From: an uncultured Acidobacteriota bacterium
GTDB lineage: Bacteria > Acidobacteriota > Vicinamibacteria > Vicinamibacterales > SCN-69-37
Length of the DNA: 64,000 bases
Assembly: GCA_963780855.1 (NCBI GenBank)
Contig: CAWADF010000008.1
Location: 164,189 to 228,188 of the forward strand
Direction of reading: 5' to 3'
Under the pieces are notes generated by a model. It worked only from the letters and a program-made list of their open reading frames with translations. It had not been told where the DNA came from and made no database searches. The stretch's first letter is position 1, and every line of letters starts with the position of its first letter. This document shows positions 58,527 to 60,963 of the stretch, in pieces. A program made the position numbers and the translations under genes.

Positions 58527-59963
58527 ATGAGCACCACCTATCCGAATCTGATCGATGGCCGGCGCGTCGAGTCGCGCGACCGCCAGTCGGACATCAACCC
58601 GTCGAACACCGCCGACATCGTCGGCGAATTCTCGCGCGCGACGACGACGGAACTGCACGAGGCGATTGCCGCGGCGCGCCAGGCGTTCGGGACGTGGTCC
58701 CGATCGACGCCGCAGCAACGGTTCGACGTGCTGGACAAGGCCGGCACCGAGATCCTCGCGCGCAAGGACGAGCTCGGCCGGCTGCTCGCGCGCGAGCAGG
58801 GCAAGCCGCTCGCCGACGGCGTCGGCGAAGCCGCGCGCGCCGGCATGATTTTCAAGTTCTTCGCCGGCGAGGCGGTGCGTCTGGCTGGCGAGCGGCTGGA
58901 TTCGACGCGGCCGGGCATCGACGTCGAGGTGACGCGCGAGCCGCTCGGCGTCGTCGCCGCGATCACGCCGTGGAACTTCCCGCTGGCGATTCCCGCGTGG
59001 AAGATCGCGCCGGCGATCGCGTTCGGAAACGCCGTCGTCTTCAAGCCCGCCGAGCTCGTGCCGGCGTCGCCCTGGGCGATAGCGGAGATCGTTCAGCGTG
59101 CGGGGCTGCCGCCGGGCGTGCTCAACCTCGTCATGGGGCCGGGATCGAAACTCGGGCCGGCCCTGGCGTCGTCGCCCGAGGTGGACGCCGTCAGTTTCAC
59201 GGGCTCGCAGGACGTCGGGCCGTCGGTGGCAGCGGCTGCGGTGGCGGCCGGATCGCGCGTCCAACTCGAGATGGGCGGGAAGAATCCGCTGATCGTGCTC
59301 GACGACGCCGATCTGCCGACCGCCGTGTCGATTGCCATCAACGGCGCGTACTTCCAGGCGGGGCAGCGCTGCACGGCGTCGAGCCGGCTGATCGTGACCG
59401 AGGGGATTCACGATCGCTTCGTCGCGGCGATGATCGACCGTATGAAGGCGCTGGTGATCGACGACGCGTTGAAGGCGGGCGTCGAGATCGGGCCGGTCGT
59501 GGACGGACGGCAGTTGGAGAAGGACCTCGAGTACGTGGCGATCGGCCAGCGCGAGGGCGCGCGGCTCGTGCAGGGCGGGGAGCGATTGAAGCGTCAGACC
59601 GACGGGTTCTACATGGCGCCCGCGCTCTTCACGGAGACGACGGGGCAGATGCGCATCAACCGCGAGGAGGTCTTCGGGCCGGTCGCGGCCGTCATTCGCG
59701 TGAAGGACTATGAGGAGGCGTTGGCGGTGGCCAACGAGACGCCGTTCGGGCTGTCGGCGGGCATCGTGACGACCTCGCTGAAGCACGCGCGGCATTTCAA
59801 ACGCAACTCGACGAGCGGGTTGGTGATGGTGAACCTGCCGACGGCCGGGCTCGACTACCACGTGCCGTTTGGCGGGCGAAAGAAATCGAGCTACGGCCCG
59901 CGCGAGCAAGGCACGTACGCGAAAGACTTCTACACGGTGGTGAAGACGGCGTACACGGGGTAG
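58527..59963 (+). CDS. Aldehyde dehydrogenase (2,5-dioxovalerate / alpha-ketoglutarate-semialdehyde dehydrogenase-like by C-terminal motif)
   Basis: Track ORF 58527..59963(+), 478 aa. Blocks are ..ITPWNFPLAIPAWK.., ..LEMGGKNPLIVLDDADL.., ..GQRCTASSRLIV.. and ..VNLPTAGLDYHVPFGGRKKSSYGPREQG.. The last base of stop TAG is the first base of the large inverted repeat. Confidence 0.85.
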   Translation: MSTTYPNLIDGRRVESRDRQSDINPSNTADIVGEFSRATTTELHEAIAAARQAFGTWSRSTPQQRFDVLDKAGTEILARKDELGRLLAREQGKPLADGVGEAARAGMIFKFFAGEAVRLAGERLDSTRPGIDVEVTREPLGVVAAITPWNFPLAIPAWKIAPAIAFGNAVVFKPAELVPASPWAIAEIVQRAGLPPGVLNLVMGPGSKLGPALASSPEVDAVSFTGSQDVGPSVAAAAVAAGSRVQLEMGGKNPLIVLDDADLPTAVSIAINGAYFQAGQRCTASSRLIVTEGIHDRFVAAMIDRMKALVIDDALKAGVEIGPVVDGRQLEKDLEYVAIGQREGARLVQGGERLKRQTDGFYMAPALFTETTGQMRINREEVFGPVAAVIRVKDYEEALAVANETPFGLSAGIVTTSLKHARHFKRNSTSGLVMVNLPTAGLDYHVPFGGRKKSSYGPREQGTYAKDFYTVVKTAYTG

Positions 59964-60072
59964 GGACGGGGCTTTTTTCCACAGATTTGGCCGTTGCAGG
60001 GACGGAGGTCGGCCGCTACGGGTCCGACCCCCGTCCCTTTTTGGCCAAATCTGTGGAAAAAAGCCCCGTCCC
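59963..60072. repeat. 110-bp nested inverted repeat: perfect 30-bp outer arms enclosing a 15-bp inner hairpin
   Basis: The outer left arm gggacggggcttttttccacagatttggcc (59963-59992) is the exact reverse complement of ggccaaatctgtggaaaaaagccccgtccc (60043-60072). The inner stem agggacggaggtcgg (59998-60012) pairs with ccgacccccgtccct (60024-60038), 14/15 paired, with an 11-nt loop. I saw only one copy in this window. Confidence 0.9.
59998..60042 (+). terminator. Rho-independent terminator for the + strand ALS-like/ALDH operon (inner hairpin + T5)
   Basis: A 15-bp GC-rich stem with an 11-nt loop is followed directly by ttttt (60038-60042). It lies 35 nt after stop 59963. Confidence 0.7.
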
Positions 60073-60963
60073 CACCACCCGACGCGCACGCGCGATCACC
60101 GGGGCGTCGACCATGCGGTCGTCGAGGCGGTAGGCGCCCTCGCCGCGCGCGCGGGCGGCGGCGTCGGCGTCGAGCAGACGACGCGCCGCCGCGATTTCTT
60201 CCGCAGACGGCGTGAACACCTCGTTGATCACGGCCACCTGATCCGGGTGAATCGCCATCTTGCCGCGGAAGCCCAGCGATCGTGCACGCACCGCGTCCTC
60301 GCGCAGCCGATCCGCCGACGTCAGATCCACGAACACGGCGTCGATCGGATCAGCGCCGATCGTCGCGGCCGCTAGCACGACCTGGGACCGCGCCAGCTGA
60401 ATCTCGTTACCTCCAAGCGTGCGCGGGATCCCGAGCTCGGCGGTGAGATCCTCCGCGCCGAAGAAGATCGCCGGGATTCGAGCGTTGGCCGACACGATCG
60501 CGGCGGCGCCAAGAATCCCGCGCGCCGTCTCGAGCAGCGGGATCACGGCCCGCGCCGGCGCGACAGCGGCCACCCGATCGACATCGCGGGCCGACTCCGC
60601 CTTCGGCAGCACGACGCCATCGACGCGCGCGGCGACGCCCGCCAGCCACGTCAGATCATCGTCGATCCACGGCGACGCGGCGCCGTTGACGCGAACCAGC
60701 CGCGCCGGGGCCGCGGCGCCCGCCGCACCCTGGCCGAGAAAGTCGCCGACGAGCCGCCGCGCTTCGTCCTTGCGCGTCGCGTCGACAGCGTCCTCGAGAT
60801 CGAGCACCACGGCGTCCGCGCCGGCAGCCATGGCCTTGGCGAAACGGTCAGCTCGAGTCCCGGGCACGAAGAGCACGGAGCGCAGGAGCGACGCCACGCC
60901 GCCATTGTCATCGATCCACGGCACCGCCAGACAGCAATCGCTGGCGCCGGCCGCAGCCGGCAT
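60016..60963 (-). CDS. HpcH/HpaI aldolase - citrate lyase beta (CitE)-like acyl-CoA lyase (citramalyl-/malyl-/beta-methylmalyl-CoA lyase type)
   Basis: Track ORF 60016..60963(-). The start is ambiguous (ATG 60963, GTG 60924 or GTG 60897, the last giving VASLLRSVLFVPGTRADRF). Blocks are ..LRSVLFVPGTRADRFAKAMAAGADAVVLDLEDAV.., ..VVLPKAES.., ..IFFGAEDLTAELG.. and ..GFRGKMAIHPDQV.. The stop codon 60016-60018 sits in the loop of the inner hairpin. The last 19 codons lie in the right half of the inverted repeat. Confidence 0.85.
   Translation of the reverse strand: MPAAAGASDCCLAVPWIDDNGGVASLLRSVLFVPGTRADRFAKAMAAGADAVVLDLEDAVDATRKDEARRLVGDFLGQGAAGAAAPARLVRVNGAASPWIDDDLTWLAGVAARVDGVVLPKAESARDVDRVAAVAPARAVIPLLETARGILGAAAIVSANARIPAIFFGAEDLTAELGIPRTLGGNEIQLARSQVVLAAATIGADPIDAVFVDLTSADRLREDAVRARSLGFRGKMAIHPDQVAVINEVFTPSAEEIAAARRLLDADAAARARGEGAYRLDDRMVDAPVIARARRVVGTGLFSTDLAKKGRGSDP

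Follow-up and report, generated by a model that had tools for sequence, protein, structure and literature searches.

Here, we describe a nested palindromic DNA element located at positions 59963-60072 of a 64-kb stretch of the genome of an uncultured Acidobacteriota bacterium of the order Vicinamibacterales (GenBank assembly GCA_963780855.1, contig CAWADF010000008.1, positions 164,189 to 228,188), which was analysed over its full length of 64,000 nucleotides and is hereafter called the window. The element sits where an aldehyde dehydrogenase (ALDH) gene and an open reading frame (ORF) for a CitE/HpcH-like CoA-ester lyase meet tail to tail, and it is one copy of a dispersed family of nested palindromes of approximately 105-130 bp in Acidobacteriota, a family that is apparently undescribed. 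The locus comprises the following features, given with window coordinates, strand and the basis of each assignment.

58527-59963, plus strand: ALDH gene (ORF; orthologues called Aldedh)
59963-59992, strandless: left outer arm GGGACGGGGCTTTTTTCCACAGATTTGGCC, 30 nt (sequence, repeat finder)
59963-59971, strandless: terminal G-rich motif GGGACGGGG, a variant of the family terminus GGGG(A/T)C(A/G)G
59973-59978, strandless: T6 tract, with a mirror A6 at 60057-60062 (sequence and family alignments)
59975-59983, plus strand: TTTTCCACA, a match to the DnaA-box consensus, with its mirror TGTGGAAAA at 60052-60060 (pattern scan)
59998-60038, strandless: inner hairpin with its loop at 60013-60023 (repeat finder, folding)
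60039-60043, plus strand: T5 after the inner hairpin, a terminator-like site on the plus (ALDH) strand only (terminator scoring)
60043-60072, strandless: right outer arm, the exact reverse complement of the left one (repeat finder)
60016-60963, minus strand: ORF for a CitE/HpcH_HpaI-family CoA-ester lyase, convergent with ALDH (ORF, deposited relatives)
60016-60072, minus strand: element-encoded C-terminal tail GTGLFSTDLAKKGRGSDP and stop codon of the CitE/HpcH-like ORF (ORF translation)

Direct reading of the sequence and a repeat finder agree that the outer arms (59963-59992 / 60043-60072) complement each other perfectly over 30 nt, and these arms form the longest inverted repeat of the window. 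Their pairing widens to 34 nt at 97% identity, with one mismatch (59959-59992 / 60043-60076). Inside them lies an inner hairpin whose 15-nt arms (59998-60012 / 60024-60038) pair with one mismatch and stand 11 nt apart, and T5 follows it at 60039-60043. The arm of this inner hairpin, AGGGACGGAGGTCGG, repeats the outer terminus directly, in diverged form. The predicted folds are very stable, both as RNA (-104.2 kcal/mol, z = -13.5) and as DNA (-58.8 kcal/mol, z = -12.8), and no shuffled sequence was equally stable in either case. A third copy of the arm was absent from the window (two sites only, 0 expected from 100 shuffles), and a sensitive blastn search of the window returned no further copy of the element. 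The ALDH stop codon TAG (59961-59963) is made up of the flanking TA and the first G of the element, while the CitE/HpcH-like ORF, whose true start is probably near residue 23, extends across the right arm and halfway through the inner hairpin, so that the element encodes the C-terminal 18 residues of this ORF (GTGLFSTDLAKKGRGSDP) as well as the stop codon (60016-60018). An earlier note, made from the letters of the window alone, had claimed the perfect 30-bp arms, the inner hairpin with its single mismatch, 11-nt loop and T5, a further outward pairing across one mismatch and a start on the last base of the ALDH stop, all of which were borne out; its placement of the element between convergent operons holds as to the convergent genes, but the element is not purely intergenic, as the CitE/HpcH-like ORF enters it.

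The reach of the element into coding sequence is visible in public records. Deposited protein P0001, a CitE-like enzyme, carries the element-encoded tail, and a comparable tail (GTGLFSTD...) is found in the CitE-like orthologues P0002, P0005 and P0006, with P0003 reading another frame (GDGAFFHRS...). Such tails of repeat DNA in deposited CitE-like proteins are an annotation artefact or a tolerated tail.

The copies outside the window establish the dispersed family. A scan with an exact 18-mer of the arm, covering one genome for each species, retrieved the same nested architecture at nine loci in eight Acidobacteriota metagenome-assembled genomes (MAGs). Both arms are exact in five of these (L007, L015, L017, L023, L030) and one arm in the remaining four (L009, L014, L025, L027); a single MAG labelled Solibacteraceae holds L014 and L027 on separate contigs, and the left arm of the window copy, GGGACGGGGCTTTTTTCCACAGATTTGGCC, is identical to their arms. 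With a metagenome scan based on a two-arm pattern and then a filter for flanking complementarity, at least approximately 46 distinct high-GC copies were found at unrelated loci in Acidobacteriota MAGs and soil metagenomes, among the matches listed, so that the arm search across related genomes suggested in the earlier note ends in a dispersed family. Its density is low, since a covariance model built from 11 copies found no extra copy in 422 kb of retrieved DNA. Further, blastn of the element against 72,556 plasmids gave nothing relevant, and one-arm patterns run against viral contigs gave chance matches only. A literature search on Acidobacteria with the term 'miniature inverted-repeat' also gave nothing relevant, and the papers that hold the 10-mer TTTTCCACAG concern DnaA boxes or unrelated eukaryotic sequences.

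Two groups of matches were rejected as family members. The single-arm genome matches (L005/L013, L011/L022, L012 and others) look like isolated or clustered TTTTCCACA DnaA-box-like sites, and the two-arm matches in viral contigs come from low-GC DNA crowded with repeated TTTTCCACAG boxes. More than 100 low-GC IMG/VR viral contigs (L041-L160) carry such boxes densely and in both orientations, and resemble DnaA-box arrays or phage replication origins.

The family also includes variants. Elements of 64-67 nt without the inner hairpin occur at L164:953-1019 and L208:7545-7667, the latter with a partial tandem duplication in addition, one short element is nested within another at L166:660-788, and solitary half-elements occur too. 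One such half-element, consisting of the terminus, TTTTCCACAG and the inner terminus-like repeat, lies inside an orthologous gene for a thiamine pyrophosphate (TPP)-dependent enzyme at L035:16819-16851, L036:17940-17973 and L034:19910-19942. It is in frame in L035 and L036, where it encodes RSVPETxGSVExRSxP, and the L034 gene was called as two ORFs that are split at the half-element.

Alignments of 11 and of 43 copies define a common anatomy. From the outside inward, each half-element comprises GGGG(A/T)C(A/G)G followed by approximately six variable bases, a T-run, CCACAG, a variable stem of 8-12 nt, a short spacer and a second, diverged terminus that pairs with its mirror copy as the inner hairpin. 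In the whole element a motif of approximately 12 nt occurs four times, twice directly and twice inverted, alongside a pair of inverted DnaA-box-like sites. As a single strand, the doublet forms a long hairpin that bears a smaller one at its tip, and compensatory change has kept this form. All 43 aligned copies have a T-run of four or more, with variable positions on either side of it; the conservation of TTTTCCACAG across the family is partly imposed by the search patterns. Additionally, the outer and inner motifs co-vary within copies, with a mean identity of 3.36 of 6 positions compared with 2.75 ± 0.13 after permutation (0 of 5000 permutations as high).

Among the 43 aligned copies, pairing was found in 93.2% of the cells, and changes on both sides occurred in 30 of 48 pairs and 312 cells, a level reached in 0 of 500 shuffles, with slid controls at 38-52%. 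G·U accounts for approximately 33 of approximately 140 non-Watson-Crick cells by our own tally, which is roughly its chance share, and one-sided changes to or from G·U are rare. Because the share of G·U is near chance expectation, the symmetry is not of the RNA type, and the data favour arm symmetry that is kept at the DNA level, through identity of the two DNA arms or through a DNA hairpin. In this regard, a structured RNA gene or cis-regulatory RNA, to which the very stable predicted RNA fold and the co-varying pairs might point, is hardly credible as an explanation: a search of Rfam at a permissive E-value gave no credible match (the best was MIR918 with 51.5 bits against a threshold of 268, the models in question being generic long-hairpin microRNA models), both strands fold equally well with no enrichment of G·U, the element holds no promoter-like site, and copies overlap coding ends in both orientations.

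The history of the window copy can be followed at its own junction, as several metagenome contigs show synteny across the convergent CitE/ALDH pair. Vicinamibacterales are the closest named relatives of the window CitE-like protein, and also of the amidase beside the copy at L202, which is considered below. The element is present at the same CitE/ALDH junction in the window, in L031-L033 and in L034, with ALDH ending in ...AYTG* and the CitE-like ORF running into the arm, and the loci of P0002 and P0006 are also filled, as judged by their protein tails. The junction is empty in L035 (18-bp gap), L036/L037 (26-bp overlap) and L038/L039 (4-bp overlap, CTAG), and in the empty orthologues ALDH ends in ...AYTLPS*, ...AYSAP* or ...AYTQA*. 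Four-fold degenerate sites of ALDH are 54-56% identical between filled lineages and 54-64% over filled and empty lineages together, which is near saturation and beyond what a tree can resolve. The 22-nt terminus, the T-run and CCACAG are nevertheless identical in both arms between the window and L031, and the arms of L034 differ by single-base indels in the G-run, one of which leaves L034's own arms one base unequal. The neighbouring stem has changed with compensation, reading ATTTGGCC/GGCCAAAT, then ATTCGGCC/GGCCGAAT, then GTCCCGCC/GGCGGGAT, and loops and spacers have drifted among the orthologous copies. Two histories are conceivable, an ancient copy under constraint (or homogenisation) and repeated hits at one site, and the shared junction favours the ancient copy. 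From the perfect arms, a recent origin or strong constraint had been proposed; at 54-56% identity of four-fold sites between filled lineages a recent origin of the window copy is not supported, and constraint or concerted evolution accounts for the perfect arms.

A second junction, beside an amidase gene, is likewise found with and without the element. The element is present in L202, where both convergent genes end in a TAG made at the element ends; L287 and L288 lack it and have spacers of 8 nt (by gene calls) and 48 nt, respectively. The element-free spacer of the latter (L288:4280-4327) holds a GC-rich hairpin of its own, CGGGCGGCCGGCCTTCGACCGGCCGCCC, and because of it different hairpins occupy the same tail-to-tail position in related genomes.

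These junctions bear on whether the element is simply a terminator. The inner hairpin with T5 of the window copy scores as an intrinsic terminator on the plus strand, and there is no T-tract on the minus strand. A T-rich tail follows the inner hairpin in 7 of 48 copies, which rules out termination as a family-wide function. That a locus-specific bidirectional terminator or an mRNA-stabilising hairpin evolved in place accords with the terminator score, with the retention of the element at this junction in distant relatives, and with the relatives that lack it, which have overlapping or abutting genes or, in L288, a GC hairpin of their own. Against it stand the arms that are identical over 30 nt at unrelated loci, including those of the MAG labelled Solibacteraceae, the scarcity of T-rich tails and their absence from the minus strand of the window copy, the fact that a terminator needs neither 30-bp arms nor the conserved motifs, and the G·U pairs, which are not favoured; we regard it as very unlikely. 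It is refuted as the sole explanation because the family is dispersed, and the same dispersal agrees with the earlier view that the element exceeds what a simple terminator needs. According to the earlier note, a single copy conserved at this locus in distant relatives would have argued for a locus-specific terminator; the copy is indeed kept here in distant relatives, but it is not single, and a reading as a locus-specific terminator and nothing else fails. Because relatives without the element have overlapping genes, a role of the window copy as terminator or insulator is plausible, which would be a secondary use and not the reason for the family.

The position of the copies relative to genes and their flanking bases was scored for 48 occurrences. 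The stop codon of a flanking gene very often ends exactly one base into the element, as TA + G, and 12 of the 48 are situated between convergent genes. Both genes stop exactly at the element ends in L202, L255 and L269; in L206 one gene does so and the other has its own TAA abutting the element. TA stands just outside the G-run in 15 of the 48 left flanks and 13 of the 48 right flanks, compared with approximately 2.5% expected in DNA of 68% GC, and the next base outward is not conserved. TA is present on both sides in eight occurrences at seven distinct loci (L007, L186, L202, L204, L248/L262, L255, L269). Together with the flanking TA, the element ends read TAG...CTA, and one possibility is that selection keeps the elements as double stop-and-hairpin modules between convergent genes.

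The TA flanks fit a duplication of TA, and equally an element that inserts beside TA and ends in TA. The first of these would make the element a classical miniature inverted-repeat transposable element (MITE), that is, a deletion derivative of a TA-duplicating DDE insertion sequence (IS), either IS630/Tc1-mariner-like or of the IS427 and ISL2 groups of the IS5 family, with the four motifs of approximately 12 nt as outer and inner transposase-binding sites, as in IR/DR elements. In keeping with a MITE, the element has terminal inverted repeats (TIRs), a small size and no coding capacity. The enrichment of TA with an unconserved next base argues for such an origin, TA with the terminal G would explain why genes stop exactly at the ends, and the empty orthologue L038, with stop codons overlapping as CTAG, offers an ideal TA target. 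The two-arm metagenome scan moreover caught a low-GC palindrome family, unrelated-looking but of similar structure, which shows a clean 3-bp duplication, typical of DDE elements, in five of seven copies. Several observations speak against this origin, which we hold to be unlikely. The loci examined, the plasmids and the viral contigs yielded neither a parent IS nor a DDE transposase with these ends. When L202 is rebuilt by taking out the element together with one TA, neither gene regains a stop codon. At both junctions the empty sites are highly diverged and neither rebuilds as a simple TA insertion, the divergence being too great to decide; the empty-site comparison foreseen in the earlier note thus yielded filled and empty orthologues at two junctions, but not a reconstructed insertion. 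An HUH element inserting 3' of TA and ending in TA would give the same flanks, and the termini match repeats beside HUH Y1 genes and not known IS630 or IS5 ends.

The low-GC palindromes just mentioned form a second family (GGTCCGGTTTTTCCACAGCAAATTAATCTCCCGTTAATTTAAT...) in metagenome contigs of 36-47% GC (L178, L193, L228, L233, L249, L252), which also carries TTTTCCACAG. The direct repeats at its ends are TGA, TGA, TAA, TAA and TTA in the five copies that have them, like the TNA target duplication of a DDE-type MITE.

The link to HUH enzymes rests on published repeats. Di Nocera et al. (2013) described RAYT-like TIRYT genes that are flanked by inverted repeats, many with GGGGWSAS; these repeats occur as singles, dimers or clusters, and Acidobacteria are rich in TIRYT genes and hold a sharply defined TIRYT group (PMC3733652). 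According to Quentin et al. (2018), most TIRYTs belong to TnpA_Y1 subclass 2.1, with a C-terminal helix-turn-helix (HTH) domain similar to Bac_DnaA_C, HTH_23 or HTH_28, and the consensus of their repeats, GGGG[AT][CG]A[CG], is in the view of these authors unlike a DnaA box (PMC6006769). The family termini, GGGGTCAGAG / GGGGACGGATCTGTTTTCC..., match this consensus. TIRYT sequences from the supplement of PMC3733652 were run by tblastn against plasmids and viral contigs, and in the flanks of the Y1 genes the following repeats were read.

Skermanella, Pseudoalteromonas, Iodobacter and one viral contig: GGGGTCAGAG...
R. rubrum: GGGGTCAGACCCC
P. aeruginosa plasmid: GGGGACAGATCTATTTTCCCTAC
Another viral contig: GGGGACAGGT...

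The G-run is outermost in every Y1-flanking repeat retrieved, as it is in the element. GGGGTCAGAG is identical to the repeats adjoining Y1 genes in L289-L291, L295 and L306, a similarity that is cross-phylum only. The family arms, such as GGGGTCAGAGCCCTTTTCCACAG, GGGGACGGATCTGTTTTCCACAG (L259, L036) and GGGGTCAGATCTCTTTTCCACAG (L035), agree with the P. aeruginosa plasmid repeat in up to 17 of the first 19 bases by our own comparison, and the arm profile matches exactly the three copies of the P. aeruginosa repeat, the best with 10.3 bits and E = 0.012 in 22 kb. As judged by this sequence likeness, the termini are homologous to the TIRs of TIRYT genes (RAYT-like HUH/Y1 genes of TnpA_Y1 subclass 2.1), and the element is therefore read as a gene-less doublet of TIRYT repeats, an analogue of REPINs. 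A G precedes TAG in only 9 of 17 TA-flanked copies, and the element would fit the TIR type rather than the GTAG-REP type.

Several observations weigh against this interpretation. The arm profile scores no more than 10.3 bits on the plasmid repeats, a low value that reflects the sharing of only approximately 20 nt, and the half-element has the build of a direct repeat, whereas a classical REP is a small palindrome headed by GTAG. The window holds one copy in 64 kb, and no Y1/TIRYT gene was found by phmmer and tblastn in the window or in approximately 0.75 Mb of high-GC loci that include the element-bearing ones. As a possible partner, the acidobacterial short RAYT-like locus L283 was rejected: it belongs to a different subclass and has no such arms, and its small upstream hairpin is unrelated (6 bits against the model). 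Finally, TA lies on both sides of the best-preserved copies, as a TA-duplicating DDE transposase would leave it.

Additional features of TIRYT genes were noted in the same material. Upstream of plasmid TIRYT genes, a GGGG(T/A)CAG repeat is found in two or three tandem copies (L289:1083-1150, L295:713-745, L293:648-760). Almost all subclass 2.1-type TIRYT proteins in the supplement of PMC3733652 end in RGRP(K/R), which is AT-hook-like, and the shorter TIRYTs end in KRGRPxK, also AT-hook-like though a weak match. By inference, such a tail could suit the invariant T-run.

Each arm of the window copy further contains an exact match to the DnaA-box consensus TT[AT]TNCACA (PMC4674748). TTTTCCACA and its mirror TGTGGAAAA are the only two matches in the window, and both lie within the element; the box is also intact in the orthologous copies that were found by synteny and not by pattern (L031, L034). 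Elsewhere, the TTTTCCACAG pair pattern retrieves clusters of DnaA boxes that look like origins. A near-identical stretch in Kerstersia, Sphingobium and Brucella (L004:2237-2254, L006:3885-3902, L020:847-864), with TTTTCCACAGATTTGGCC followed by direct repeats of the type GGGGGGG(G)CGATCTAACG, could represent the replication origin of a broad-host-range plasmid, with DnaA box and iterons.

From these boxes, the element might be seen as primarily a protein-binding site, at which DnaA, or a regulator resembling DnaA domain IV, would be recruited or titrated by the two inverted boxes, with the palindrome extruding as a cruciform. The exact and exclusive boxes in both arms, their retention in L031 and L034 and the origin-like clusters retrieved by the same pattern are consistent with this, as is the C-terminal HTH of TnpA_Y1 subclass 2.1 with its weak similarity to Bac_DnaA_C (PMC6006769); in a longer Legionella protein we found this similarity to be weak as well (E = 3e-4, below threshold), and Pfam did not detect Bac_DnaA_C in short TIRYTs. 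The consensus, however, may not be that of the acidobacterial DnaA box, the conservation of the 10-mer in most copies is imposed by the search patterns, and two boxes are few in comparison with known DnaA-titrating loci; two boxes in 64 kb do not make up a cluster of the oriC, datA or DARS type, which usually lies near dnaA or dnaN. As the explanation of the element, we find protein binding improbable. It is compatible with a mobile TIRYT-type repeat, inside which the boxes could be sites for a host or transposase factor. On a more speculative and doubtful line, the elements might be the first visible cognate sites of subclass 2.1, the HUH core acting on the G-rich foot and the DnaA-like domain, or host DnaA itself, on TTTTCCACA. 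The DnaA box in each arm is an intriguing and unexplained loose end, for which a link to the DnaA-like domain of subclass 2.1 would be attractive.

We consider the element to be, with moderate confidence, a REPIN-like non-autonomous doublet of TIRYT terminal repeats that has been long retained and here probably serves as a gene-end hairpin or terminator. The occurrence at no fewer than about 46 loci, the two junctions with and without the element and the termini that resemble the repeats of RAYT-like genes agree with the earlier proposal of a miniature mobile or REP/ERIC-like element. Mobilisation by a TIRYT is moderately supported as the mechanism. A genomic TIRYT would copy the element in trans at a low rate, with a single-strand DNA hairpin as the recognised form or intermediate. 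The window copy, which supplies the G of the ALDH stop as well as the 18-residue tail and the stop of the CitE-like gene, would have reached the ALDH/CitE-like tail-to-tail junction before several Vicinamibacterales-like lineages diverged. It would probably form a hairpin or terminator between genes that overlap or abut in relatives without the element.

Acidobacteria rank among the most abundant bacteria in soil, and hardly any of their small repeats have been charted. The ends of the family tie a REPIN-like element to the poorly understood TIRYT branch of HUH enzymes, and the pairing of a TIRYT motif with a DnaA box gives the unexplained DnaA-like domain a concrete target. Further, the family shows an element that stays at one chromosomal junction for a very long time, its compensatory changes being strictly of the DNA type. 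The family also affects annotation and proteins, through stops formed at its ends, the 18-residue CitE-like tail in a deposited protein and the half-elements translated in the TPP enzyme.

Among known systems, the closest in sequence are TIRtrons and TIRYT repeats (PMC3733652, PMC6006769), with which the family shares the terminal GGGG[AT][CG]A[CG], the outermost G-run and arms up to 17/19 identical to a P. aeruginosa repeat. It differs from them in that no TIRYT gene was found beside any copy, in its fixed nested doublet with an extra inner motif pair, and in its consensus DnaA box, which Quentin et al. explicitly did not see in the published TIRYT consensus. REPINs mobilised by RAYTs (Bertels & Rainey 2011, as cited in PMC6006769) are similarly inverted doublets of approximately 100 nt that form one long hairpin, lie outside genes and at gene 3' ends, keep their pairing by compensatory change and persist for long at orthologous positions. 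Classical REP units, however, are themselves small, imperfect palindromes headed by a 5' GTAG, whereas the acidobacterial half-unit is a direct repeat.

The Correia/NEMIS, RUP and Nezha MITEs duplicate TA and have IS630 parentage. These MITEs, which PMC3733652 lists, resemble the family in a length of 100-160 bp, long terminal inverted repeats, a non-coding nature, TA flanks, and positions at gene ends where they are co-transcribed as hairpins; the acidobacterial ends, in contrast, are unlike IS630, and orthologous copies are intact over saturated synonymous divergence. Rickettsia palindromic elements, as mentioned in PMC3733652, are alike in that pieces of the family are translated, here in the CitE-like tail and the TPP-enzyme half-element of L035 and L036. 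They are an unrelated sequence family from another host phylum, and most acidobacterial copies lie at gene ends and not inside genes. IS50/Tn5, a DDE element, holds one DnaA box in each outside end. The acidobacterial element likewise carries a consensus DnaA box inside a terminal repeat of a mobile element, where it could recruit a host factor; it differs from the DDE-type IS50 with its single box per outside end.

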